From an uncultured bacterium (lineage in GTDB: Bacteria > Macinerneyibacteriota > Macinerneyibacteria > Macinerneyibacteriales > DSCS01): a stretch of 64,000 nt of DNA. The notes beneath the pieces were generated by a model. The model was not told the origin of the DNA. It did no database searches and saw nothing but the letters and a program-made list of their open reading frames with translations. A program made the translations under genes and the position numbers. Within the stretch, counting starts at the first letter, position 1, and each line of letters starts with the position of its first letter. Where the stretch lies: positions 80,206-144,205 of the forward strand of contig CAZNOX010000001.1 of the NCBI GenBank assembly GCA_964574875.1, read 5' to 3'. Positions 6,681 through 53,677 of this stretch are shown one piece after another.

Positions 6681-7967
6681 TTACCGGGCGTGAAGGTAGT
6701 GGATCACATCGGACGGAGTGATCACCCCTACCATTTTATCCCCTTCTTCTACTATAATAAGAGACACATTTTCTTTAAAAAATGTTTCTCTCACCTGGTC
6801 TGCGGGGGTGTTCTGATCCAAAAAGAGGACTCTCTTGTCCATGATCCCCTTGACGGGGATATGGAGCTGCTCTTTACGGCGCATATCCATGATCTTTTCC
6901 TTGGAGACCAGTCCCACGATCCGCCCGTTGTCATCTTCAACGGGGACAGTCCGGTAATGGCTATAGATGATCTTTTCGATGACGTCCCCGAGGCGTTCGT
7001 TTTCTCCCAGAGTAAAGACAGGACGCGACATGATGTCGGCAGCCCGGACTCCGGGGACGGCTTTCTGCTCCAAAAGGGAGAGAAGCTGCTGTCTGGCCTC
7101 TTTGACCGTGGTGTTCATCAGCGTGGCCGAAGCGGCTTTGATATGGCCTCCCCCTCCGAAAAAAGCCATGATCTCATTCATGTTGAGGTCATCGGCTGTG
7201 GTCTTTCCCACCATATGGGTCTTCCTTCCCATCCCCACAATGGCGAAAGAGGTCTGAAGCTCTTCTCTCACGTGGATACGCTGGAGGATATCGCTGATCC
7301 CGCCGACGATCTCATCCAGGTCCGCTGTCGCGATGTGAAGGGGCAGCCCGTTGATGGTGAAGGATTCCATGGACTCCATGAGCATCTCCTGCAATCTCTG
7401 CTGAAGGGGATTGAACTCTCTGTTGAGGAAGGCCAGGATATTCTCGGGGCGGGCGCCCCTTTTCATAAGTTCTGCCACTACAGCGACATCCCGGTCTGTG
7501 GTGGTGGAATAGGTCAGCGCTCCGGTATCCTCATAGATCCCGAGAAGAAAGAGCGAGGCCTCCACAGGGTTGATGAAGATATCCTTCTCCAGGAGTTTTT
7601 CAACGAGAAGGGTGGTCACAGCTCCGGTGGAGTCCACCCAGGACTCGTCTCCGGTGATGTCTCCTCCCGGATGGTGGTCATAGACCACCACCCTGGCGTC
7701 TGTCTTCTCAAGAAAAGCGGAGAAACGGCCGAGCCTCTGCCTCCGCCGCGTGTCCACCATGATGATCTCCGTGATCTCGTTCAGGTCATTGAAACGCGAG
7801 AATTTCTCTATGGTAAAATACTTGTAATGCATCTTGAGAAAGAGGGCGACATTCTCCCTTTTTTTCCCCAGGCTGAGCATGATCCCGTCGCCGTAGAGCT
7901 TCCTTGCAGCGGCCATCCCTGCCAGGGAGTCGAAGTCCATCCCTTCATGACTGATGATCACTCTCAT
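6681..7967 (-). CDS. DHH/DHHA1 phosphoesterase (NrnA-like) with a C-terminal CBS pair
   Basis: SHEGMDFDS, MVDT, YDHH, GIYEDTG, GGGGHIKAASA; CBS repeats from AADIMSRPV to GVITPSDV. Confidence 0.85.
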   Translation of the reverse strand: MRVIISHEGMDFDSLAGMAAARKLYGDGIMLSLGKKRENVALFLKMHYKYFTIEKFSRFNDLNEITEIIMVDTRRRQRLGRFSAFLEKTDARVVVYDHHPGGDITGDESWVDSTGAVTTLLVEKLLEKDIFINPVEASLFLLGIYEDTGALTYSTTTDRDVAVVAELMKRGARPENILAFLNREFNPLQQRLQEMLMESMESFTINGLPLHIATADLDEIVGGISDILQRIHVREELQTSFAIVGMGRKTHMVGKTTADDLNMNEIMAFFGGGGHIKAASATLMNTTVKEARQQLLSLLEQKAVPGVRAADIMSRPVFTLGENERLGDVIEKIIYSHYRTVPVEDDNGRIVGLVSKEKIMDMRRKEQLHIPVKGIMDKRVLFLDQNTPADQVRETFFKENVSLIIVEEGDKMVGVITPSDVIHYLHAR

Positions 7968-7968
7968 A

Positions 7969-10437
7969 TCAGTGGGCTTCCTCCCAGTTTTTCCCTGAAG
8001 AGACTTCAGCTTTCATGGGAACGGAAAGCGGGAACGGGGTGGCCTCCATGACCTCGCGGATGAGGGGAAGGGTGTGTTCGAGCGCACTCTCTTTCACTTC
8101 AAAGAGAAGTTCATCATGGATCTGAAGAAGAAGGCGCACATTCCCGTCATCAGCCCACTTGTCATGGACACGGATCATCACCTCCTTGATGATATCGGCG
8201 GCACTCCCCTGTATGGGGGTATTCACGGCGATACGTTCTGCCGCTTCACGCATCATGCGGTTTTTCCCCTGAAGCCCGGGGACGCGCCGTCTTCTGCCTG
8301 ACAGGACGTCCACCCAGCCCTTTTCCCTGGCGTTCCTGATGGTCCTGTCGATAAAAGACCTGACTCCGGAAAAGCGTTCAAAATAGCGCCCGATGAGGGC
8401 TTCAGCTTCGGCAAGGGGAATATCAAGCTGTGAAGAGAGGCTGAAGGCCGACTGGCCGTAGATGATCCCGAAGTTGACGGCTTTGGCCCGATGACGCATC
8501 TCAGAGTCTGCGGTGCCGAAGAGGCGCCGTGCCGTCTCACTGTGGATATCTCCTCCCTGGCGGAAGATCGAAATCAGATTCTCATCTCCGGAATAGTGCG
8601 CCATGATGCGGAGTTCCATCTGGGAATAGTCAGCCGAGACGAGGGAATACCCCTCATCGGCCACAAAAAGCTGGCGCATGCGCTTTCCCCACTCCCCGTA
8701 GATGGGAATATTCTGAAGATTGGGGTTTTTCGAAGAGAGCCGCCCCGTCGCCGTTCCGCAATAATCCAGGGTGGAATGGAGCCGCCCGTTTCTGTCCACA
8801 GCATCCAGGTAGGGAAGGATGTAGGTGGAGAGGATCTTCTGGATCTTCCGGTATTCCAAAAGCATCTCTCCCACGGGGTGGACAGAGGCGACCTTCTGAA
8901 GGACCGACTCATCCGTGGCATAACCCGTTTTGGTCTTCTTCAGCCGTCCGGGGATCTTCAAAGCCATCTTCTCGAAAAGGACGTCTCCCAGCTGCTTGGG
9001 AGAACGGATATTGAACTCTTCTCCGCATTCACGGTAGATCTCCTTTTCCCGGTCGGATGTGGCCTCTTCCAGTTCAGTCCTGTAGGCCTCCAGAAGCGTT
9101 GTGTCGATCTTCACTCCGTACTCTTCCATGCTCCTGATGACCTCCGGAAGCCGCAGTTCAGTCGTGTCCAGATAATCCCAGTGCCCGCGCTGTTCAAGCT
9201 GGGAACGGGCCTGCAAGAAAAAGTCGCGGAGTTCCTGTATCGTCCGGATGGAGCGTTGCTCATAAAACCCTTTTGCCGTGGACGCGGTCTCCGAGTCATG
9301 GGCCCAGTAGTCCAGCAGGCGGAGGTCCCGGATTTTGCAGGATGCGTCATGTTCCCTGAGGAAGGTATGGGCGTCGTAGGTCCAGAGGAGAAGCCCCGGG
9401 CGCTTGAGAAAACCGGGTTCTCCCGGAACCGTGTAATACTCTTCCGTCTCCACGCCTCCGAGAAAAAAGCCCTCCTCTCCCTCCATGAGGAGGAACTCCC
9501 CCTTCTCACAGTCAAAGGGGCCGCTCTCATAGATGACCTCTCTGCCGGGAGCAGGCTTCTCTTCGGCCTTGTGGGCGATATATTTCATAAGAGAGAGAAA
9601 ACGCTGCTGAGTGAAATAGTCCCTGATGAGCTCAGGATCATAGGCCGGGAACCTCGCCTCTTCAAAGTCCAGGTCCATGGGAATCTGCCTGTTGATCACC
9701 ACGAGTTTTTTGGAGAGACGGAGCATCTCCTCCTGTTCTCTGATCTGATCCCTGGCCCGGGGGTTGGGGATCTCGTCTGACTGTTCAATAATGGATTCCA
9801 CATCCCCCAGGGCTTTGATGAGGTTTTTCGCCCCCTTGGGGCCGATCCCCTTCACACCGGGGATATTGTCAGAAGCATCTCCCATGAGGGCCAGGTAGTC
9901 GGTAAAATGCTCCAGGCCGAACCCGTACTCCTCTTCAAAAACCTTTCTGTCATAGCGCTTGTCTTCTTTGGGGCCGCTTCTCACCACACTCACATGGTTA
10001 TCGATGAGTTGAAGAAGGTCTTTATCAGGAGTGTAGACCAGGACCTCACACCCCCTTCTCTCCTTCACCTTCTCTGTGATAGTCCCGATAATATCGTCGG
10101 CTTCATGTCCGGAGATCTCGATGCGTTTGATCCGGGCCAGATCAAGGAATGATTTGATGTTTGCGATCTGAAGGCTCAACTCATCGGGCATGGGTTTCCG
10201 GTTGGCTTTATAATCAGCAAAAAGCTCGTGGTTGTCTGTCTTGCCCCGGGAATCAAAGGCGACATAGAGAAAATCCGGACGATGAGCCTCCAGCAGCCCG
10301 AAGAGCTTACGTAAAAATCCGTACAGGGCGCCCACGGGCTCCCCGCGGGGATTGGTCAGGTTCTGACGTTGAAAAGCATAAAAGGCCTGATAGGCCAGGG
10401 CATTACCGTCCACAAGGAAAAAACAGTCAGGTTTCAT
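7969..10437 (-). CDS. polA: DNA polymerase I (intact 5' nuclease, vestigial 3'-5' exonuclease domain)
   Basis: LVDGNALAYQAF, EADDIIGT, motif A DYSQMELR, motif B KAVNFGIIYG, motif C QIHDEL; start ATG 10437 overlaps the upstream stop. Confidence 0.96.
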   Translation of the reverse strand: MKPDCFFLVDGNALAYQAFYAFQRQNLTNPRGEPVGALYGFLRKLFGLLEAHRPDFLYVAFDSRGKTDNHELFADYKANRKPMPDELSLQIANIKSFLDLARIKRIEISGHEADDIIGTITEKVKERRGCEVLVYTPDKDLLQLIDNHVSVVRSGPKEDKRYDRKVFEEEYGFGLEHFTDYLALMGDASDNIPGVKGIGPKGAKNLIKALGDVESIIEQSDEIPNPRARDQIREQEEMLRLSKKLVVINRQIPMDLDFEEARFPAYDPELIRDYFTQQRFLSLMKYIAHKAEEKPAPGREVIYESGPFDCEKGEFLLMEGEEGFFLGGVETEEYYTVPGEPGFLKRPGLLLWTYDAHTFLREHDASCKIRDLRLLDYWAHDSETASTAKGFYEQRSIRTIQELRDFFLQARSQLEQRGHWDYLDTTELRLPEVIRSMEEYGVKIDTTLLEAYRTELEEATSDREKEIYRECGEEFNIRSPKQLGDVLFEKMALKIPGRLKKTKTGYATDESVLQKVASVHPVGEMLLEYRKIQKILSTYILPYLDAVDRNGRLHSTLDYCGTATGRLSSKNPNLQNIPIYGEWGKRMRQLFVADEGYSLVSADYSQMELRIMAHYSGDENLISIFRQGGDIHSETARRLFGTADSEMRHRAKAVNFGIIYGQSAFSLSSQLDIPLAEAEALIGRYFERFSGVRSFIDRTIRNAREKGWVDVLSGRRRRVPGLQGKNRMMREAAERIAVNTPIQGSAADIIKEVMIRVHDKWADDGNVRLLLQIHDELLFEVKESALEHTLPLIREVMEATPFPLSVPMKAEVSSGKNWEEAH

Positions 10438-10993
10438 CGCACCCCTCCCCGCGGGCCTGTTCCACGGCTTTCTGCCAGCTGCCGAACCTCCTGTAGGCCC
10501 GGGCATAGAGGGTCGGGTCATCTTTTGAGACCGTGGTCCGAAGCGGATTTTCAAGATAACGCCGGATCACACACAGAAGCTCATGGTCCTTAAACCGGGT
10601 CACAGCCTCCTCATGCCCCGCTTCCCTGAGCGCCGCTTTCCAGGAGCCGAACACTCGCCGGGCCGACGAGTAGAGACGGGGTTCGTCTCTGTAGACACGG
10701 CTGAGTTCTCCCGGGCTTTTTCCCCTCAGGATGTCCAGGATCTTCTCATGATCCCAAGCGTCCTTCTTTTTTCTCTCTTTTCGGGCTTTCCGGTACTCTT
10801 CGTCCGGATCAAGGCCGCATCGGTCCAAAGCGGCTTTCCAGTGTCCGTAATATTTTTTTCGGATAGCAGCATTAAAGAGCCGGGGGTTGACCCTGCGGAC
10901 AGACCCGGGAGTCAGAGGGACTCCGTTTCGTTTCAACGTGCGGATCTCTTCACAGATCTTCTCTTTATCCCAACGGATGTTTTTTTTAAGCAC
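10427..10993 (-). CDS. Protein of three helical repeats ending in (F/Y)G(S/H)W..A (homing-endonuclease-associated-repeat-like), no nuclease domain
   Basis: Repeats PRLFNAAIRKKYYGHWKAAL / PRLYSSARRVFGSWKAAL / PTLYARAYRRFGSWQKAV. Confidence 0.7.
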   Translation of the reverse strand: MLKKNIRWDKEKICEEIRTLKRNGVPLTPGSVRRVNPRLFNAAIRKKYYGHWKAALDRCGLDPDEEYRKARKERKKKDAWDHEKILDILRGKSPGELSRVYRDEPRLYSSARRVFGSWKAALREAGHEEAVTRFKDHELLCVIRRYLENPLRTTVSKDDPTLYARAYRRFGSWQKAVEQARGEGCDET

Positions 10994-10998
10994 AGAGA

Positions 10999-11481
10999 TT
11001 ACCTTTTATAACCGATGGTCCGTAAAAACGCCTGCCTTTTCTCAATATCCTCGTCGTTTTCCTGCCCCGCAGGCTTCTTGCCGTCGATCACGCCGATGAT
11101 TCCGCGTCCCTCTCCGTTATCGGCCACCAAAACGGTGAGAGGGTTCGCCGTGGCGGCAAAGATGGAGCAGACTTCGGGGACCTGCTTGACCGAGTTCAGG
11201 CAATTGACGGGAAAAGCATCCCGCATGATGATGAGAAACGCATGACCCGCGCCGATACGCTCCAGGTTTTCCGCTGCCGTCTTTCGCAATTCCGCATCCG
11301 TGCCTTCATGGCGGACCAGGCAGGGCCCGCTGGCCTCATTAAACGCAAGCCCGAACCGGATTCCGGGAAAAGCCTGCACCAGGGCTTCATAAAGGTCTTC
11401 CACTGTTTTAATGAAATGGGCCTGGCCCAGGATAATATTGTCATCGTCTTCTTTGTGAAGTTCCACACTGATTATGTCCAT
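10999..11481 (-). CDS. Adenosine-specific kinase family protein (DUF355)
   Basis: NIILGQAHFIKTVEDLYE, FGLAFNEASGPCLVR, IFAATANP, GRGIIGVIDG. Confidence 0.9.
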   Translation of the reverse strand: MDIISVELHKEDDDNIILGQAHFIKTVEDLYEALVQAFPGIRFGLAFNEASGPCLVRHEGTDAELRKTAAENLERIGAGHAFLIIMRDAFPVNCLNSVKQVPEVCSIFAATANPLTVLVADNGEGRGIIGVIDGKKPAGQENDEDIEKRQAFLRTIGYKR

Positions 11482-11510
11482 AGAGACTCCTTTTTTTGGC
11501 ACTTTCAATC

Positions 11511-11589
11511 ATTATAGAGCAATTTAGTCAAAGGTCAAGATGCCCCGAAGGGAAAAGAATCTTGACAAAAAGCCCCCGACTCTTAATAT
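11511..11589. promoter_or_regulatory. Divergent promoter pair for the adenosine-kinase/polA operon (-) and the DnaA-like gene (+)
   Basis: Minus: TTGACC(11538-33)-N16-TATAAT(11516-11). Plus: TTGACA(11562-67)-N16-TAATAT(11584-89). Confidence 0.7.
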
Positions 11590-11609
11590 TAAGAGAAAGG
11601 GAGGTTTTG

Positions 11610-13931
11610 ATGCAAAAGCTTTTTGAAATCAATGGAATCGGGATACATCTCACAACCCAGGCCTCTGATTCCCTGGGACACACCGGATTCCTTTCTATCG
11701 AAGGGTCCGTATCCCCGAATAATATCCAGAGTTTTGAAGCCGCTCTGAAAAAGATCAAGGCCTTCGATATCTCTGTGATCGTCATCGATTTCAGCAAAGT
11801 CTCTTCATTCTGTGATGAAGCCTGGGCCGTGATCCGGCAGCAAAAAGAGAACCTCTCCCGTCCCGGAGAAGAGATCTTTCTTCTCAGGATGCCTCCCACC
11901 CTTTTCGAACAGTTTCACGCCCAGGGACATGACGAAATCCTGAAGCATTTCAGGGCCTTCGGCGACCTGGACCGCTACATGGTCTCCGCATCAAACAAAA
12001 CGCTCGCTGCCCCTGAGACAGAGGCCCCGGACATCTCGGATGAAGACAAGCCCGATTCCACGGAGAAGGCCATGGACAAACCGGCTCAGCCCACTCCATT
12101 TTCTCATGAAGAGACTGAAGAAGTCCTGTCAGAGGATCTTCCGGAAATCCCTGAAGAGGACATTATGGAGGACAACGCCCCGCAAGTGATGCAGGAACGC
12201 TTCCCTCTCAATGAGAGCCGGGAAGTCTTCGAAGAGACGGAACTTGCCGACCTTCCCGAAGAAGATATCGAAGAGGCGCTTCCTTCAAAGTCCTTCGGAG
12301 CGGAATCCATCCCTGAGAAAATGATCGCTATCCGGGGAAAGCTGCGCTCCTTATTTGAAAACAAGATCTACGAATGGAAAAGCCTGGGGTACGACACCGC
12401 TTACCTGGATGCCTATCTGGATAAAAACCTGGACGAAGCCAAAAAAGCCTTTGCCCTCTACTCCAAGAACCTTGCAGACTGCCGCGAGATGGAAGCCGCA
12501 GCCGACATGATCGAAAATCCGGCCATGAAAAAGGATCTGCTTCTGACAAAATCCCTTCTGAAAAAACCCATGGAGATCGATAAGGCCCGTGAAGCCTTTT
12601 CCCGTCTTCTCAAAGAAGCGGAACAGCTTGACCATGATGCTTTTCTTCCCCTGGCCGACTACCAGTTTGACAATTTCATCAAAGGGAACAATAAAGACAC
12701 CATAGAGATGGTCCTTCACCTTGTCCACCATCTGGACGCCTACGACCGGCCTCTTCTGCTCCATGGAGCCAACGGGACGGGCAAGACCCATATCCTTAAC
12801 GCTATCGGAAACACCATCCGTCTGAAGACATCACGCTCAGTCAACTACATTCCCGCCAACAACTTCATCGTGGAGCTGGAAAACATGCGCGAACAGGGAA
12901 GGCTTCACCTTTTCAGAAAACGGTACATGTCCTGTGAGGTCCTTCTCTTCGATGATGTCCATCTGCTTGAAGACGCCTCGTCCGCCGCTCATGAGTTCCG
13001 GTTCCTCATGGACGCCCTGGCCAGACAGTCAAAGCTGCTGATCATGGCCTCCGTCCTCAAGGCCGATGATTTCAAGTTTGTGAGCAAAGACCTTCAGTCA
13101 CGCCTGAAAAGCGCCATCCACCTCACCATGGCACCGCCTGACGAAGCCACATTGTCGCGTATCCTGGACAAACGCATGGGAGAGCTGAAGATCGATTCAG
13201 AGAAAGGCGTTCCCCGCTATCTGGCTCAAATGGCTCCCGGAGACATCAGAAAAGCCTTCGGGCTTCTGGAAACACTGCACCTCTATGCCAAGACTTATCA
13301 TGAAAGCATCAGTTTCGAACTGGTCCGCGAACTGACCTCGTCCACACTCTCCTATGAAGAGATCCGTGAGATGACACCTCCCGCCCCTCCCCAGGAGACG
13401 ATCTTCCCTGAACGGGAGGACTCCTTTCCAAAAGAGGAGTCCATCGGGGAGATGGAAAACGAACCCGAAGAGTCCCTTTCTGCGGATGTCGAAGAGGAGG
13501 TCTCATTGACCCCGGACGAAGGAGAGGACACCGTGTCCCTTCCCGAAGGGATGGAGCACAGGCTTGAAGGCGATATCCCCGACTATCTCCCTGAAGAGGG
13601 CGACGAGCCGGAGTCCTTCTCTGAAGAAGAGAATATCGTCCTTCCCCGTGAAGAGACTCCGGAAAATGAAGAGGCCGTTGTCTCCCCGGAAGAAGAGGAA
13701 TCCTTTGAACTTCCTGCAGAGGAGACGCCTGCAGAAGAGGAGGAGAGCCTGATCTCCGAAGAAGAGAAGGCTCCTTTCAATGAAGAATCTCCGTCTGAAG
13801 ATGATTCAGACCCCTTTGCCGGGCTGGATGATGATGAAGAGGGCCGCCCTCTTAGCGATGTCACAGAGGACTCTGACCTTGACCTCTGGGATGAAGTGGA
13901 TGAAAACGAAGACGATCCCTTCGCCCTGTAA
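11610..13931 (+). CDS. Multidomain DnaA/Hda-family AAA+ ATPase: STAS-like N-terminus, helical linker, DnaA domain III, long acidic tail; no domain IV
   Basis: FDNFIKG, Walker A GANGTGKT (12765-12788), Walker B LLFDDVH, LQSRL, GDIRKAFG; STAS-like VIVIDFSKVSSFCDEAWAVI; AAGGGAGG RBS before ATG 11610. Confidence 0.8.
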   Translation: MQKLFEINGIGIHLTTQASDSLGHTGFLSIEGSVSPNNIQSFEAALKKIKAFDISVIVIDFSKVSSFCDEAWAVIRQQKENLSRPGEEIFLLRMPPTLFEQFHAQGHDEILKHFRAFGDLDRYMVSASNKTLAAPETEAPDISDEDKPDSTEKAMDKPAQPTPFSHEETEEVLSEDLPEIPEEDIMEDNAPQVMQERFPLNESREVFEETELADLPEEDIEEALPSKSFGAESIPEKMIAIRGKLRSLFENKIYEWKSLGYDTAYLDAYLDKNLDEAKKAFALYSKNLADCREMEAAADMIENPAMKKDLLLTKSLLKKPMEIDKAREAFSRLLKEAEQLDHDAFLPLADYQFDNFIKGNNKDTIEMVLHLVHHLDAYDRPLLLHGANGTGKTHILNAIGNTIRLKTSRSVNYIPANNFIVELENMREQGRLHLFRKRYMSCEVLLFDDVHLLEDASSAAHEFRFLMDALARQSKLLIMASVLKADDFKFVSKDLQSRLKSAIHLTMAPPDEATLSRILDKRMGELKIDSEKGVPRYLAQMAPGDIRKAFGLLETLHLYAKTYHESISFELVRELTSSTLSYEEIREMTPPAPPQETIFPEREDSFPKEESIGEMENEPEESLSADVEEEVSLTPDEGEDTVSLPEGMEHRLEGDIPDYLPEEGDEPESFSEEENIVLPREETPENEEAVVSPEEEESFELPAEETPAEEEESLISEEEKAPFNEESPSEDDSDPFAGLDDDEEGRPLSDVTEDSDLDLWDEVDENEDDPFAL

Positions 13932-13945
13932 ATGAAAGGAAAAGC

Positions 13946-14461
13946 ATGACCGACTCGCGACAAAAAATCCGCCGTTTTACATCCCTGGGAATCTTTACAA
14001 GCCTTGTCATTATCATGACTCTTTTCGCCCGTATTCCCATGCCTCAGATCAAAGGATACATCAACCTGGGAGACTCCATGATCCTCCTGGGGACGCTCTT
14101 CTTCGGCGGAGCCTTCGGTGCTGTCATCGGCTCATTCGGATCGGCTTTAGCTGACGTGATCGGAGGGTACCCGAACTTTGCCATCTTCACCTTTATCATC
14201 AAAGGGATCGAGCCCTTGATCTTTGCCCTGCTCATCCGCGCGGGACAGAAAAGAGGCTATTCCATTCCCCGCCTTCTCTACGGAGCCGCTTTTGCCATGT
14301 TCTGGATGGTCGCCGGCTATTTCTGGGTGGAATATTTCATGTTCGGAGCCCCGGCAGCCTTTGCTGAAGTCCCCGGCAACATCATCCAGGCGGTGGGATC
14401 CATCTTTATCAGCATCGGACTCTACAATATCGTCCGGAATACAGTGAAAACACCCGCTTAA
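13946..14461 (+). CDS. ECF transporter substrate-specific (S) component
   Basis: IPMPQIKGYINLGDSMILL, GSALADVIGGY, TFIIKGIE, EVPGNIIQA. Confidence 0.85.
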   Translation: MTDSRQKIRRFTSLGIFTSLVIIMTLFARIPMPQIKGYINLGDSMILLGTLFFGGAFGAVIGSFGSALADVIGGYPNFAIFTFIIKGIEPLIFALLIRAGQKRGYSIPRLLYGAAFAMFWMVAGYFWVEYFMFGAPAAFAEVPGNIIQAVGSIFISIGLYNIVRNTVKTPA

Positions 14462-16941: not shown

Positions 16942-19693
16942 CTAAAAAGGAAGGATGGCCCCGATCTCAAAAAAGCTCCCCTGGTTATCCGGATCTTCAA
17001 GATCCCAGGCGTATCCCCCGCCCACAGTGAAAAACCCGGTGCTGATACGCCCCAGGACTCCCGCTGTGGCCACTGAGCCGTCGGCTTCCAGACGTCCCTG
17101 GTCGAAAAAGGCTGTGTCGATGAAGAGAGCTCCTTCTGCGATACTGTAATTGTAGCGGATCTCTCCGCTCAAGGCCCCGATGAGACGGCTGGGGATATCA
17201 GTGTTCAGCCCCCTGACGGTGACTCTTTTGTCATACCGGAAGCCTGTAAAGGGTTCCTGAAACGAGTGGTTCTCGCTCCGGATCCGGGGAAGGTCCTGGG
17301 GAGCAGGTTCTCCCCATTGTTTATGCACTTCCCCATAGAGTGAGACGACAAAGGGGGAGATCCTGCGAACCAGATAGGCATCGCATTTCAGGTAGGTGGA
17401 CAGATCTCTCTCTCCCGCGAAGGGAAGCGAAAAGGCGATCCCTGTATGAACTCCCGTCTCATGATAGGGGTAAAAAAGGCGGGGATGGCTGTTCTTGTAG
17501 ATATAAGAAAAATAGAGATAGGGGTCACTGTAATCCCTGGGAAGCTGAGTCTCATCTCCCGAAAACGAATCCCCGTTGAGGATGTCGGCCTTCCGGTACC
17601 CCCCTCCCGTTTCGAAGATCCGTGTCACATAGCGGTTATGCGGATGATCCACGGGGAGGGAGAGAGAGAGAGATCTGCCCCCCGCTGATTCGCTGTCGAA
17701 GTTCTTTTGAAAGATAATCTTCTGTGCTGTCTCCATGGGACCAGGCCGAGATCCCGATATCAAAGGCTGTGCTCTTATTGGTATAGGAGATATTATAGAA
17801 GATATCCTCCCAGTTGGCATCATCGATCCCGGCAAAGACCTGAAATGTATGCCATCCCATGGGTTCGGAAAAGACGGTCATGAACCCCGGGTAGACCTCT
17901 TCGTCCATATAGAGGGGAAGAAAACTGATGAGACGAAGATTCCTGAAGGGGCGGTACGGGCCGTTGAAGGCCCCCTCTTCGGGGATATTCTGATTCAGGG
18001 AAGCCCGGGGCTTGATGGTCATCCAGGCAGGACGGTCCACATCCCGGGTGACATCGGGTTCTCTGTGGGGGTCGATGAGGCACACGCGCATGGAAGAGCG
18101 CTCACGTGAGCTGATGCACAGGATGCCGTCATCTGTCCATTGCACGGGTTTTAGAAATCCCCTCTGCCGTGTCACCTGCCTCAGAGAGCCGTCTTTGATC
18201 TCCACTCTGAAGAGGGACGCTCTCTCCCTGTCATCCATGGCGAAGAGGACCGTCTGCTCATCAGGGGAGACCACCGGTGAAAACGGACGCTGGGGAAGCG
18301 GAAAGAGCTGAGCTGTCTCTGAAGGAATGTCGTAAAGGAAAAGATAGTATCTTCGTTCAGAAGGATGAAAGAGCGCCGCAGCCAGTGTGGACCCTTGTCC
18401 GGTGAGATCATAGATCTCTTCTCCGGAAAGAGGACTGAAAAGGGTCACGGGCTCTCCGTTCCCCCCTGTCCGGGCAATCACGGCGGTTCCGTGTCCGGTA
18501 TTCCTGAGGTAATAGAGCGTCCCGTTCATGGACACGGGATCGAAAGCGCGTTCATCCCGTGTCAACGCTCTCTCTCCGTGTCCCTGTTTGGAAAGGAAAT
18601 AGATGTCGCTGTAAAGAGATCCGTGTTTTCCCCGGATGGTCTTACCGTAGTAGAACCCCTTCTCATCGGCGAAGATTTTGCCGAAAAAGGGCTGTTCCGT
18701 GATCCGTTTCAGTCTCTGCCGGCGGGGGTCATACACATAGAGCCCCTGAGCCGGTTCCTTTGTCTTCCGTGTCCCCGTGATGATGAACCGGCCGTCTGCG
18801 GCCATGAGGCCATCCAGGACGTCAAAAGAGGGGATCTCAAGGTCTTCAGAGATCTCTGAAAGGCTTTCCAGGGAATCGGCCTTCTCCCTATAGTACTGTT
18901 CCATGGCCTTTCTCCAGCGCTTCGTGTAATCCTTGTAGGATTCGCCGAAACTCTCTTCGAAGGCCTTTTTAAAAAGAAACGTTCCGAAAAAATCACGTCT
19001 TTTAAAGAGACGGCCGAATTCGGCCGCCTTTTCAGGATGCTCGGCATAGAGAGTGCGGATCTGGGAAAATCCCTTGGCGTAGAGAAGAGGGCCGTCATCA
19101 GGCGTGATCCCCCATGTCTTCCATGAGCTGAAGAGTGCTGCGTTTTCCAGCCAGCGCTCTCCCCTCATGAGCCCCCAGGGCTCTAAAGCAAAAAACTGAG
19201 CATAACCTTCATGGACTTCAGCGGGGACATCCAGGGACGGGCCGAAGATATTCGTCCAGGATTTGGTGTTTTCAAAGATGAGGGCATGGACCATCTCATG
19301 GGCGATGACCTTTTCAAGCCAGGGCTGGTCCCCGGTGAAGTGGTCCAGATAACGTGAGGGAGAGACCCAGATGAAAAAGTATCCGTAGGGAAGTGTGGCT
19401 CCATTGGCGATATCGTCCACATCGGAGATGAAGATGGAATATTTCTTTTTGAAAGAGAGCCCCAGGTTTTTCTCATGCATGGCATAGACCTGTTCACTGA
19501 TGCCCCCCGCTTCACGGGCTGTCTCTTCAAGGCCGGTGCTGTAAATGATCCGGAAGTTCTCTGTCTCATAGACCCGCCAGGTGAGCTCGGGATGATTCCT
19601 GTGATTCATGAGGGAGAATGTTCCCAATCCCGCTACCGGGACTGCCGCCAGGAGAAAGAGGACACCACAGAGAGCAATTCGTTTCAAGACCAT
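16942..19693 (-). pseudogene. Frameshifted outer-membrane protein: gluzincin (MA-like) peptidase domain + beta-propeller + beta-barrel; split into ORFs 17636..19693 and 16942..17835
   Basis: Signal peptide, HEMVH...EGYAQFF, propeller-like repeats; frame 1 ends QISLSLPPRGSSA* and frame 2 continues SLSLPVDHPH to a C-terminal FFEIGAILPF beta-signal; the switch falls in the (TC)7/G6 tracts. Confidence 0.75.
17660..17673 (-). repeat. (TC)7 dinucleotide simple sequence repeat at the frameshift site
   Basis: Plus strand GAGAGAGAGAGAGA at 17660-17673; adjacent C6 run at 17678-17683. Confidence 0.9.
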
Positions 19694-50917: not shown

Positions 50918-53677
50918 TCACCTGCCTTCTTCTTGGACAACGCGGACACAGCGGCTGCACAGGTCCGGATGGTTCTCACTTTTTCCTACTGTCGGGGAAT
51001 ATTCCCAGCAACGCGAACACTTCTCATGAGGCGATTTGACAGCCCCTATGGAGAGGCCCGGCCAGTCGCTGCACGGGCTCATCCCGTCCTTTTTTTCCAC
51101 AAAGACAGAAGAGACGATGTTCATCCGGCGCAGATCGTCCAGATGGCTTCTCAGGAAAGCTTCATCGTCCTGATCGTCTGTATGAAGATAAATATAGGCA
51201 TCCAGAGAGTGTCCGATCTCTCCGGAGTTTCGTTTGGCTTCAAGGATACGGCGGATATCGTCACGTAACGAGTCAAGACGCTCCCATTTTTCTGTGAGCT
51301 CTCTCTCCTCAGGGCAACTGATCTCCGGCCAGAGGGACAGATGAACGCTCTCTTCCAGAGAGGCCATCTCACGGAGATATCCCCAGACTTCTTCGGCCGT
51401 AAAGGGGATGAGAGGGGCAAGCATCCGGGTCAGGGCGGTGACCGTCTCCCAGACTACAGTCAATGTGGCCCTCCGGCTCATCCATTCTTTCCCGTCGGCA
51501 TAGAGGTTGGATTTACTCCCGTCCAGGTAAGACGAGGAGAGTTTCACCGTGCAATAGTTGTGAATCGTATGGAAGACCTTGTGAAACTCAAAAGCCTCAT
51601 AGGCCTTGTCCACATCCCTGGTGAGGGATTTCAGTTCCAGCATCATGTGACGGTCGATCTCAGGCATCTTCTCATAATCCACACGCCCCTTCTCCACATC
51701 AAACCCGTGGAGGACACCCAGCATAAAGCGCAGGGTGTTCCTGATCCTCCGGTAGGCTTCTGCGATGCGTTTCATGATCTCTGCAGAGAGCGGGACATCG
51801 TTACGGTAGTTTTCAGAAGCGATCCAGAGCCTGAGGACGTCAGCTCCGTACTCCCTGATGACATCCTGGGGGTCCACACCGTTCCCCTGGGACTTGGACA
51901 TCTTCCGTCCTTCTCCGTCGACGATAAAACCGTGGGTCAGGACTGTTTTGAAGGGAGCTCTCCCCTGTTCTGCCGTACTCAGGGTAATGGCGCTGTTGAA
52001 CCATCCCCTGTGCTGGTCCGACCCTTCGAGATAGAGGTCAGCGGGGAGGCCAAGAGCCTCAGACTTTTCCACAACACTCTTGTAGCTGGATCCCGATTCA
52101 AACCAGACGTCCAGAATATTCATATCTTTTTCAAGCCCCGCATGGCCGCAGGAGGGGCAGCGGTTGAGTTCCCCCAGGATCTCGTCTTCTGTCCTGGTGA
52201 ACCATCCGTCAGAGCCCTCTTCACCGATAAACTCCGCAGCTCGCTTCATGATCTTCTCGTCCACGGCATACTCAGAGCATTCCGGGCAGTGAAACATCGT
52301 GATGGGGACTCCCCAGCTTCTCTGCCGTGAGATACACCAGTCGGGACGGTCCTGGACCATCCCCCTGATCCTGTTTTCTCCCCATTCGGGGATCCATTCT
52401 GTCTGTCCGATCTCATCGAGGATATGCTTTCTGAGATCCTTATGGTCGATCTTGACAAACCACTGCTCCGTGGCCCGGAAGATGACAGGCTTTTTGCACC
52501 GCCAGCAATGGGGATAGGAGTGAGAGATGGTTCCGGCGTGAACGAGAGCCTTCTTCTGCCGCAGAAGTTCCATGATAGGCTCATTGGCTTCAAAGACCGA
52601 GACGCCCTCCATGGGTTTGAACTCCGCAGTAAAACGCCCGTTGTCATCCACGGGGTTCAATATGGGAAGGCCGTACTTCAGCCCTGTGATATAATCCTCC
52701 TGCCCGTGTCCCGGGGCAGTATGGACACATCCGGTCCCTGTATCATCAGTCACATAGTCCGCCAGGACGACCCGGCTCAGACGTCCGTCAATGAAGGGAT
52801 GTCTCGCTTCGCGCCCTTCCAGCTCTCGTCCGGTGAACTTCTCCGTGACGGTGTACTCTGTGATCCCGATCTCCTCCATCATCTTTTCAAGAAGAGGTTC
52901 TCCGACGATCCAGTGTTCGCCGTTCACAGCCACATCCACATAGGTGAAGTCAGGATGAAGAGCGATGGCCACATTGGCGGGGAGGGTCCATGGCGTGGTG
53001 GTCCAGATGATGAAAAAAGTCCCCTTCTTTTCACTGTCTTCAAACTTGACCGTGATGGAGGGAGAGGCATGATCCCCGTATTCGATCTCGGCTTCTGCCA
53101 GTGCTGTGGTGCAGTGTGAACACCAGTAAACGGGTTTTTTCTGTCTGAAGATATAACCGTCCATCACAAGTTTTGTAAAGATCTCGACGATCCCCTTTTC
53201 ATAACTCCTGTCGATGGTCAGGTAAGGCTTGTCCCACTCTCCGAAGATCCCCAGCCGTTCAAAATCCCTGCGCTGTTTTTCCACGTATTTCAAAGCGTAA
53301 TTCCGGCACTTCCTCCGGAATTCAGGAACCGAAAGAGCTTCGCTCCCCGGCTGTTTGGAGACTTCCAGTTCAATGGGGAGACCGTGACAGTCCCATCCGG
53401 GGATATAGGGGGTCTTGTACCCCTTGAGTGATTTGTACTTCAGGATAAAGTCTTTTAATGTCTTGTTCAGGGCATGCCCCATGTGGATCATGCCGTTGGC
53501 ATAGGGAGGGCCGTCGTGGAGAATATATTTCCCGCCGTTTTCCCTTTTTTTTATGATCTCTTCATAGATCCCCTTGTCCCGGCTCCATTGTTCAATGATC
53601 TCTTTTTCCCGGACAGGGAGATTGGCTCTCATGGGAAAATCGGTTTTGGGTAAATTCAAAGTCTCTTTGTAATCCAC
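50918..53677 (-). CDS. ileS: Isoleucyl-tRNA synthetase (type 1, with C-terminal zinc finger)
   Basis: LHDGPPYANG, HMGH, PGWDCHGLP, DWCISRQR, KMSKS, CSRCW...CSRC. Confidence 0.98.
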   Translation of the reverse strand: MDYKETLNLPKTDFPMRANLPVREKEIIEQWSRDKGIYEEIIKKRENGGKYILHDGPPYANGMIHMGHALNKTLKDFILKYKSLKGYKTPYIPGWDCHGLPIELEVSKQPGSEALSVPEFRRKCRNYALKYVEKQRRDFERLGIFGEWDKPYLTIDRSYEKGIVEIFTKLVMDGYIFRQKKPVYWCSHCTTALAEAEIEYGDHASPSITVKFEDSEKKGTFFIIWTTTPWTLPANVAIALHPDFTYVDVAVNGEHWIVGEPLLEKMMEEIGITEYTVTEKFTGRELEGREARHPFIDGRLSRVVLADYVTDDTGTGCVHTAPGHGQEDYITGLKYGLPILNPVDDNGRFTAEFKPMEGVSVFEANEPIMELLRQKKALVHAGTISHSYPHCWRCKKPVIFRATEQWFVKIDHKDLRKHILDEIGQTEWIPEWGENRIRGMVQDRPDWCISRQRSWGVPITMFHCPECSEYAVDEKIMKRAAEFIGEEGSDGWFTRTEDEILGELNRCPSCGHAGLEKDMNILDVWFESGSSYKSVVEKSEALGLPADLYLEGSDQHRGWFNSAITLSTAEQGRAPFKTVLTHGFIVDGEGRKMSKSQGNGVDPQDVIREYGADVLRLWIASENYRNDVPLSAEIMKRIAEAYRRIRNTLRFMLGVLHGFDVEKGRVDYEKMPEIDRHMMLELKSLTRDVDKAYEAFEFHKVFHTIHNYCTVKLSSSYLDGSKSNLYADGKEWMSRRATLTVVWETVTALTRMLAPLIPFTAEEVWGYLREMASLEESVHLSLWPEISCPEERELTEKWERLDSLRDDIRRILEAKRNSGEIGHSLDAYIYLHTDDQDDEAFLRSHLDDLRRMNIVSSVFVEKKDGMSPCSDWPGLSIGAVKSPHEKCSRCWEYSPTVGKSENHPDLCSRCVRVVQEEGR

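Follow-up and report, generated by a model that had tools for sequence, protein, structure and literature searches.

A stretch of 64,000 nucleotides (nt) from an uncultured bacterium of the phylum Mcinerneyibacteriota (contig CAZNOX010000001.1, positions 80,206 to 144,205; hereafter referred to as the window) carries on its forward strand, at positions 11610..13931, a gene for a protein of 773 amino acids (aa) in which a STAS domain, an acidic linker, a helical module, an AAA+ ATPase of the DnaA domain III type and a long polyanionic tail follow one another. This combination is an undescribed architecture within the DnaA/Hda-clade AAA+ paralogues. On the evidence of the sequences compared, the protein is a lineage-specific DnaA paralogue that keeps the ATP-binding, hydrolysis and oligomer-interface core of domain III. 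Because its catalytic residues are invariant whereas the residues by which DnaA binds DNA are replaced, the nucleotide site and the trans-acting arginine are judged to be under selection, with the DNA-touching elements gone. The protein is probably a lineage-specific regulator. As to its action, we tentatively favour, with a confidence that stays short of even, an ATP-dependent, DNA-blind partner, cap or inactivator of DnaA assemblies.

The AAA+ core and the DNA-binding parts of DnaA

The AAA+ domain III and its lid occupy aa 346-588 (12645..13373, forward strand). Pfam Bac_DnaA (PF00308) matches aa 350-502 with E = 7e-24, and the NCBIfam DnaA model (TIGR00362) aligns over profile positions 105-346 of 437, corresponding to domain III and the lid, with 152.2 bits against a cut-off of 343.9. 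The Hda model (TIGR03420) reached 82.4 bits (cut-off 194.8), IstB (NF038214) 54 bits (cut-off 200) and DnaI (NF006505) 30 bits (cut-off 228), and the IstB/DnaC family PF01695 was matched above its own cut-off, with 37 bits over aa 327-475. The closest solved structures by sequence are the domain III structures of the B. subtilis, T. maritima and A. aeolicus DnaA proteins. A full-length AlphaFold model, built from a 7-sequence family alignment, is confident in three blocks, namely aa 1-132 (predicted local distance difference test score, pLDDT, of about 89), aa 234-344 (about 90) and aa 362-586 (about 85). Foldseek ranked DnaA structures first (8bv3, template-modelling (TM) score 0.76; 2z4r, 0.83) and Hda second (0.60-0.64), the TM values of these AAA+ matches being normalised on the target.

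Every motif quoted in the sequence-only reading that preceded this analysis is present in the protein. These are KIYEWKSLGYDTAYL at aa 252-266 and, within the AAA+ domain, FDNF at 353-356, the Walker A motif GANGTGKT at 386-393, the Walker B motif LLFDDVH at 445-451, LQSRL at 495-499 and GDIR at 544-547. Individual residues were compared in an alignment with E. coli DnaA and Hda (NC_000913.3) and seven canonical DnaAs. All nine family sequences share K392/T393, D448/D449, R498 (R285 in E. coli) and R547 (R334 in E. coli) without exception, which speaks for an ATPase that works and depends on its interface. At the initiator-specific insertion, which consists of two helices, the protein matches DnaA in length, whereas Hda has a deletion at this place. 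The roles of the E. coli DnaA residues, including V211, R245 and K243, have been summarised (PMC5742627). In the window protein, V211 of the H motif corresponds to Glu424 (E, D, K or N in the family, but hydrophobic in all aligned canonical DnaAs), K243 to Ala456, R245 of the B motif to Ser458 and R227 of AID-1 to Ser441; the equivalents of V211, R245 and K243 are not conserved within the family. At box VII, R281 gives way to Asp494, which never varies in the family, and the motif reads D-L-x-S-R-L, like the DLASRL of Hda; the DnaA-specific sensor-1 Asp269 is replaced by Val482 (V, A or T in the family). The sequence-only reading had called domain III complete, and this holds for Walker A and B, the arginine finger and sensor II, all of which are present; it is nevertheless overstated, because the equivalents of Asp269, Arg281, Lys243, Val211 and Arg245 are all changed.

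Neither the helix-turn-helix (HTH) domain IV (Bac_DnaA_C, PF08299) nor domain I (DnaA_N, PF11638) was matched in the window protein, the N-terminus having the fold of a STAS domain instead. When the 64-kb window was searched by tblastn with three full-length canonical DnaAs, matches were confined to 12660-13349; there is thus no domain IV hidden in any other frame of the window, nor a second DnaA homologue or a canonical dnaA. The same search, along with the recovery of the same architecture in independent assemblies, rules out that a domain IV was displaced by an assembly error. A regular-expression search of nine family sequences for the clamp-binding motif (QL[SP]LPL or QLxLxL) returned only scattered, non-homologous matches in single sequences. 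The protein was accordingly rejected as a canonical Hda, as it has no conserved clamp-binding motif and scores below the Hda cut-off. Given the low equivalog scores, the absence of domains I and IV, the replaced H and B residues and the lack of a clamp motif, the protein is, as far as these comparisons reach, neither the initiator nor Hda. On these three points (no domain IV, no clamp motif of the QL[SP]LF type, neither initiator nor standard Hda) what had been read from the letters alone was borne out. An anti-phage defence ATPase was also considered and discarded, as PADLOC gave only weak, P-loop-centred matches, the best being PDC-M01A (E = 7e-6).

STAS domain, helical module and acidic segments

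The STAS domain spans aa 1-132 (11610..12005, forward strand), as indicated by Pfam, a model pLDDT of about 90, Foldseek and a profile alignment to SpoIIAA. In the window protein the Pfam STAS family (PF01740) scores 21.6 bits, just below its cut-off of 22.6, while in orthologues it scores 32-46 bits, above the cut-off. A second structure model, covering aa 1-345, was used for the fold comparison; in it the domain superposes on SpoIIAA, RsbV, RsfB and TM1442 at TM 0.80-0.89 (Foldseek), and the family profile of aa 1-132 matches SpoIIAA with E = 1.9e-5. The assignment of the N-terminal 120 or so residues to a STAS fold, first made from the translation, is therefore well founded on the Foldseek superposition, the profile match and the Pfam scores of the orthologues. 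Transporter- or ABC-ATPase-binding STAS domains (MlaB, 6xgz; prestin/SLC26) were also among the fold matches, but the nearest matches are anti-sigma antagonists rather than MlaB or SLC26.

The best-conserved patch of the domain, D60-x-S62...W72, lies on the face (beta3-alpha2) with which SpoIIAA binds its partner. The position of the phosphorylated Ser58 of SpoIIAA is occupied by Glu70 in the window protein, and by Glu, Glu, Lys, Ser or Gly across the five family clusters. Because the acceptor position varies, gating by serine phosphorylation is not a feature of the family, and classical partner-switch phosphorylation was set aside as an unlikely gate. No cognate kinase or phosphatase gene (RsbW-type, PP2C), nor any other partner-switch gene, was found in the 64-kb window. 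Among other proteins, P0024, P0030 and P0066, which are large and carry three tandem STAS domains, score unusually well on the family STAS profile, and one tandem-STAS protein combines a SpoIIE phosphatase, an HTH domain and three STAS domains.

The helical segment noticed earlier behind the linker proved to be a module of five helices (aa 234-258, 264-270, 274-298, 304-317 and 320-344) within aa 232-345 (12303..12644, forward strand), and could additionally be identified as one unit of a repeat. An exhaustive profile search with aa 1-345 against 1.84 billion representatives revealed that the module is a single copy of a repeat of about 97 aa (consensus EWKxxGYxVxxLE...LKDPxxI; profile positions of about 238-338), which occurs in tandem, 5 to 19 times, in proteins of 750-3,143 aa devoid of Pfam matches. 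The repeat-bearing clusters include P0018, P0019, P0021, P0025, P0029, P0053 and P0064, and the named sources of these proteins include Bathyarchaeia and Thermoproteota metagenome-assembled genomes (MAGs). At a meaningful E-value, the repeat matched no Pfam family and, by sequence, no solved structure; it appears to be a repeat family not described before. The structural matches listed by Foldseek for the two models were taken up by AAA+ and STAS folds.

A second unusual architecture built on DnaA domain III was seen at locus L006 (8001-10298; cluster P0009). This protein of 765 aa is composed of an N-terminal domain, one EDWKSKGY helical unit, a zinc ribbon, a DnaA-type AAA+ domain and a C-terminal DUF835, and has Leu at the arginine-finger position (RLVSLF). 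Its cluster mate P0179 carries the JGI name 'DnaA', and the neighbourhood of L006 is archaeal-looking (RPA-like OB protein, KaiC-like ATPase).

Two segments of the protein are acidic and disordered, with pLDDT values below 50 throughout aa 589-773 and almost throughout aa 133-231. The linker (aa 133-231; 12006..12302, forward strand), with 31% Asp plus Glu over aa 126-235, contains the motifs TPFSHEETEEV (aa 162-172) and FPLNESRE (aa 198-205). F198, P199, L200, S203 and R204 of the latter (FPLxxSR) are invariant in 9 of 9 sequences; E167 and E170 of the former are invariant in the 7-sequence alignment, and E170 is still so in the 9-sequence alignment. The tail (aa 589-773, 185 aa; 13374..13928, forward strand) contains 40% Asp plus Glu and 3% Lys plus Arg, with a net charge of -68, these composition figures having been measured over aa 591-773. 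As neighbouring proteins contain only about 16% Asp plus Glu, the acidity is a property of this protein and not of an acidic proteome. Composition and low pLDDT thus agree with the earlier description of an acidic linker and of a last stretch of about 185 residues rich in Glu and Asp.

Members of the family share only 17-53% identity in the tail, whose length ranges from 137 to 304 aa, yet its net charge is kept at -52 to -101. Conservation is found in the last 40 or so residues and in the linker motifs. The conserved tail motifs are DPFAGL (aa 734-739) and DLDLWDEVDENEDDPFAL-COOH (aa 756-773), and every cluster ends with an acidic run followed by DD[PF]F-x-x-COOH (DDPFAL, DDFFE, DDFFS, DDPFKF); ahead of the terminal acidic run stands a hydrophobic/aromatic-acidic motif, usually of the form [LF][WF][DES][DE]. 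With acidity retained and the bulk of the tail sequence not, the conserved terminal and linker peptides display the pattern expected of interaction peptides.

Gene integrity, neighbourhood and distribution

The open reading frame (ORF) runs from an ATG at 11610 to a TAA at 13929-13931. It is preceded by a Shine-Dalgarno sequence, GGAGG (11600..11604, forward strand), spaced 5 nt from the ATG, and by a sigma-70-like promoter, TTGACA-16-TAATAT (11562..11589, forward strand), matching the consensus at 10 of 12 positions, so that a 773-aa ORF with its own promoter and ribosome-binding site, as originally proposed, was recovered unchanged. There is an alternative in-frame TTG start upstream, at 11496; the ATG is the likelier start because GGAGG sits 5 nt ahead of it. 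On the reverse strand, a divergent promoter (TTGACC-16-TATAAT, 11538-11511; 11 of 12 matches) faces the cluster formed by an adenosine-kinase-like gene, an HNH-repeat gene and polA. Six promoter-like sites were observed in the region against 1.9 expected. Architecture and motifs are preserved in orthologues down to 25% identity, which argues that the ORF is not due to chance, and the same architecture is found in independent assemblies (ENA, JGI, NCBI, Logan). Taken together, these features mark a conserved, expressed-looking, single-copy chromosomal gene.

Starting 14 nt past its stop codon, behind an AAAGGA ribosome-binding site, lies a gene for an ECF-transporter S-component-like membrane protein of 171 aa (13946..14461, forward strand; PF07155, 101 bits). 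In the window, no terminator separates this gene from that of the ATPase. The S-component gene is directly downstream, at a gap of 14-18 nt, in 6 of 6 distinct loci examined (adjacency recorded for the window, L001, L004, L005, L007, L009 and L010). Riboswitch control of this gene was ruled out, since an Rfam scan of the window finds only a tRNA and the intergenic gap measures 14 nt. At L005, riboflavin biosynthesis genes are located about 8 kb upstream of the S-component gene, which may therefore simply serve vitamin uptake.

On the other side of the ATPase gene, a conserved cluster occupies 7969..11481 of the reverse strand. It consists of (i) the adenosine-kinase-like PF04008 gene (10999-11481), (ii) a gene for a basic 188-aa protein (10427-10993; pI 9.9, 24% Lys plus Arg) with homing-endonuclease-associated repeats of the HNH type (PF18780), and (iii) polA (7969-10437), whose start is overlapped by the HNH-repeat gene. 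Adjoining polA on the same strand is a gene for a DHH-DHHA1-CBS protein of 428 aa (6681-7967). Wherever the flank suffices (window, L001, L004, L005, L007), the PF04008, HNH-repeat, polA and CBS-DHH genes are adjacent, and the cluster is retained, with all genes on one strand, even at L005, the locus of the 26%-identity orthologue. In the lineage of the window, an inversion left the ATPase/S-component pair divergent from the other cluster genes, the pair having moved together. At L005 the ATPase is 26% identical to that of the window as compared with 46-59% for its neighbours; the ATPase thus evolves faster. As regards the CBS-DHH protein itself, it aligns with the 'A-adding tRNA nucleotidyltransferase' model over positions 1-428 of its 880, with 258 bits, and appears to be a stand-alone N-terminal half of that model, conserved beside polA.

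The rest of the window is of a housekeeping nature (clpC, serS, proS, ileS, rpsA, ispH, pyrBI, tilS and signalling proteins). No origin signature was detected in the window, where the cumulative GC skew falls almost monotonically, and no cluster of DnaA boxes was found at the promoter or locus of the ATPase gene. DnaA-box-like 9-mers (TTATCCACA, at most 1 mismatch) number 30 in the window against 9.9 +/- 2.7 expected and lie mostly on the forward strand, three of them within 93 bp inside ileS (51606-51698); the excess is possibly an effect of coding bias. On the reverse strand, at 16942-19693, a gene whose 915-aa orthologue in L001 (15345-18092) is unbroken appears as two ORFs that overlap. 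The break is due to a frameshift near 17657-17679, in a (GA)n run that exceeds its L001 counterpart by 4 nt; it could stem from slippage or from an error in sequencing, or mark a true pseudogene.

Among the 1.84 billion representatives, the architecture was found in five 50%-identity clusters only (P0001, P0006, P0007, P0020 and P0028), and 4 of 185,579 species-representative genomes encode the family. All informatively named members belong to Candidatus Mcinerneyibacteriota, Mcinerneyibacteriales or Mcinerneyibacterium; L007, one of the carrier MAGs, bears the label Bacillota. Among the carriers are the MAGs DSCS01 SpSt-1200, CAZGIO01, CAZMFS01 and CAZIJP01 and the Mcinerneyibacteriales assemblies that encode HOO59754.1, HPJ69398.1 and MBN2726586.1. 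A search of 50,697 phage and 72,556 plasmid records with the N-terminal 345 aa returned no match, and this, along with the housekeeping neighbourhood, led us to dismiss a mobile-element IstB helper or a phage or plasmid gene. Databases name the members only 'DnaA/Hda family protein' or 'ATP-binding protein', and no relevant description of a STAS and DnaA fusion was found in the literature searched, in keeping with the initial impression that the system is undescribed.

Predicted function and comparison with known systems

According to the reading that we favour, the protein would bind ATP and use its AAA+ faces to dock head-to-tail on protomers of DnaA or on the end of a DnaA filament. Since it cannot hold DNA, it would then cap, poison or inactivate the initiator assembly, in an Hda-like manner but with a different recruitment. 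The face of the STAS domain and the FPLxxSR and DD[PF]F-COOH peptides may act as recruitment or input handles. The tail, with a charge of about -70, may mimic nucleic acid or an SSB-type tail, intra- or intermolecularly, and could occupy a basic DNA-binding surface such as that of DnaA domain IV or of the basic HNH-repeat protein encoded nearby. The roles suggested from the letters alone, among them a signal-gated regulator of initiation, a DnaA co-oligomer or decoy and a tail that mimics DNA, are compatible with this anatomy and may apply. Given that the trans-acting arginine and the filament insertion are kept and DNA holding is lost, the simplest assumption is that the protein docks on a second AAA+ face of the DnaA type. 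A precedent exists in Hda, which docks on the AAA+ domain of DnaA (PMC5742627). In favour of this reading, the AAA+ domain is closest to DnaA among both library models and solved structures (152 bits, as against 82 for Hda and 54 for IstB), and the gene is a housekeeping chromosomal one that stays beside polA over deep divergence, with no phage or plasmid homologue. DnaC, a further DnaA paralogue, has also been reported to dock on the DnaA AAA+ domain.

Several observations weigh against a DnaA-directed cap. No canonical dnaA was found, the search for one having covered the 64-kb window. Three residues of the DnaA-DnaA contact are lost, and co-assembly with DnaA is hence not guaranteed. As no clamp-binding motif is conserved in the nine sequences, the route taken by Hda is excluded. 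Capping of DnaA does not account for the fact that a subunit of a membrane transporter is the sole operon partner to be strictly conserved, and the synteny was seen in one phylum only, where it could be due to inertia. A more specific version, namely a previously unseen DnaA antagonist that would join the filament through its AAA+ domain, be switched by its STAS domain instead of the clamp, and block the DNA-binding domain of the initiator with a DNA-mimicking tail, strikes us as somewhat doubtful.

The loss of K243, R281, R227 and sensor-1 D269, which serve DnaA-DnaA contact and tight nucleotide binding, would fit an autonomous ATP-driven switch or scaffold unlinked to DnaA, whose AAA+ domains homo-oligomerise while its other parts link it to a signalling or envelope process. 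STAS is a typical signalling module, the helical unit is found elsewhere in giant repeat proteins unrelated to replication, and its conserved partner in the operon encodes a membrane protein. We nonetheless hold such a switch to be rather unlikely: the AAA+ domain resembles DnaA more than any other AAA+ clade and has kept the insertion, polA is adjacent in all loci with enough flank, and the window contains no signalling partner genes of the RsbW-type kinase or PP2C phosphatase kind. The linkage to polA could also be accommodated by a replisome adaptor or helicase loader similar to DnaC or DnaI, with an SSB-tail-like C-terminus (DDPF..) recruiting it to SSB-interacting proteins or to Pol I. 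The layout, an N-terminal partner-binding region and an AAA+ domain without HTH, is loader-like, the DnaC/IstB profile PF01695 matches above its cut-off, and the acidic-aromatic C-terminus resembles the SSB tail DDDIPF. Against this, the equivalog models of IstB and DnaI score far under their cut-offs, the basic residues with which DnaA and DnaC contact single-stranded DNA are not conserved, the tail Phe does not stand at the very C-terminus, where SSB tails carry theirs, and no helicase gene is nearby, all of which makes a loader improbable.

If the conserved S component, kept 14-18 nt behind the ATPase gene in every locus and moved together with it through the inversion, is given more weight, the protein might be a regulatory ATPase of the co-transcribed ECF transporter subunit, its STAS domain docking on the transporter or its ABC ATPase as in MlaB-MlaF and SLC26/SulP. 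STAS domains that bind transporters are indeed among the fold matches. This is quite improbable, considering that no DnaA-type AAA+ domain with a role in transport is known to us, that the nearest STAS matches are the anti-sigma antagonists, and that the S component is an ordinary one which perhaps serves mere vitamin uptake. Less probable still is an ATPase subunit of a split, non-canonical initiator, with a separate DNA-binding protein acting in trans, for example the adjoining HNH-repeat protein, which is conserved, basic and equipped with repeats of a DNA-binding type. The intact ATPase motifs and the lack of a canonical dnaA in the 64-kb window would suit it. However, the residues by which DnaA holds and opens the unwound strand are lost, the window has neither an origin-like skew nor a box cluster at the locus, the ATPase evolves much faster than its neighbours, and canonical DnaA is, to our knowledge, near-universal in bacteria. 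Finally, the frameshifted (GA)n run in another gene of the window could raise the suspicion of an assembly artefact or of a decaying dnaA pseudogene; the uninterrupted 773-aa frame, the agreement of the ENA, JGI, NCBI and Logan assemblies, and the invariance of catalytic residues and short motifs refute this, and its chance is practically negligible.

Should the protein be the STAS-switched DnaA antagonist with a DNA-mimicking tail, the family would represent control of the Hda kind that arose independently outside the proteobacteria and follows another logic of recruitment. Hda-type control, by which a paralogue of DnaA turns the initiator off, has been characterised mainly in proteobacteria, while other phyla use the unrelated YabA, SirA, Soj and HobA. 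The capture of AAA+ paralogues would then be a recurrent route to the control of initiation, and the protein would offer a natural case in which DnaA oligomerisation is separated from DNA binding. The analysis also exposed new elements, namely the helical repeat of about 97 aa, widespread in giant archaeal and bacterial proteins, and the conserved acidic-aromatic peptides. The practical impact is limited, the host being uncultured and the distribution very narrow.

Among known systems, DnaA (PF00308; 8bv3, 2z4r, 1l8q) is the best match to the AAA+ domain of the window protein in both sequence and fold. Common to the two are the F-D-N-F strand, GxxGxGKTH, hhhhDD, S-R-[LF], the sensor II Arg, the lid and an insertion of the same length. 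DnaA differs in having domain I, a typical domain II and the HTH domain IV, none of which is found in the window protein; the latter adds the STAS domain, the helical module and the polyanionic segments that DnaA lacks. DnaC, DnaI and IstB (PF01695) are likewise AAA+ proteins of the DnaA clade without HTH and with an N-terminal partner-binding region, but the match to them is much weaker than to DnaA, their N-terminal domains are different, and no transposase or helicase gene lies near the window gene.

With SpoIIAA, RsbV and RsfB the protein has in common the STAS fold and a conserved patch on the same beta3-alpha2 face; these are single-domain proteins, whereas the STAS domain described here is fused to an AAA+ ATPase and has no conserved phospho-Ser. 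The E. coli SSB tail ends in DDDIPF and, like the tails of phage T7 gp2.5 and gp4 and like DNA mimics, is an example of an acidic tail that docks on basic surfaces. The tail of the window protein is similar to SSB-type tails in its polyanionic disorder and in its terminal acidic run with an aromatic residue; in contrast to the SSB tip, the aromatic residue is placed two residues from the end, and the tail is far longer.

Hda/HdaA (TIGR03420; 3bos) is likewise a DnaA-derived AAA+ protein without DNA-binding domains. The arginine finger R498 aligns with that of Hda (D-L-Q-S-R-L versus D-L-A-S-R-L), Asp is found at box VII in both, and the sensor II context R-K-A-F resembles R-T-L-F of Hda. Hda is short (about 230 aa), consists of the AAA+ domain only and has lost part of the insertion, in contrast to the 773-aa window protein, in which the insertion is kept. 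The characterised Hda/HdaA proteins are proteobacterial, whereas the present family is confined to Mcinerneyibacteriota. The action predicted for the window protein, docking on the AAA+ domain of DnaA, would be the same as that of Hda.

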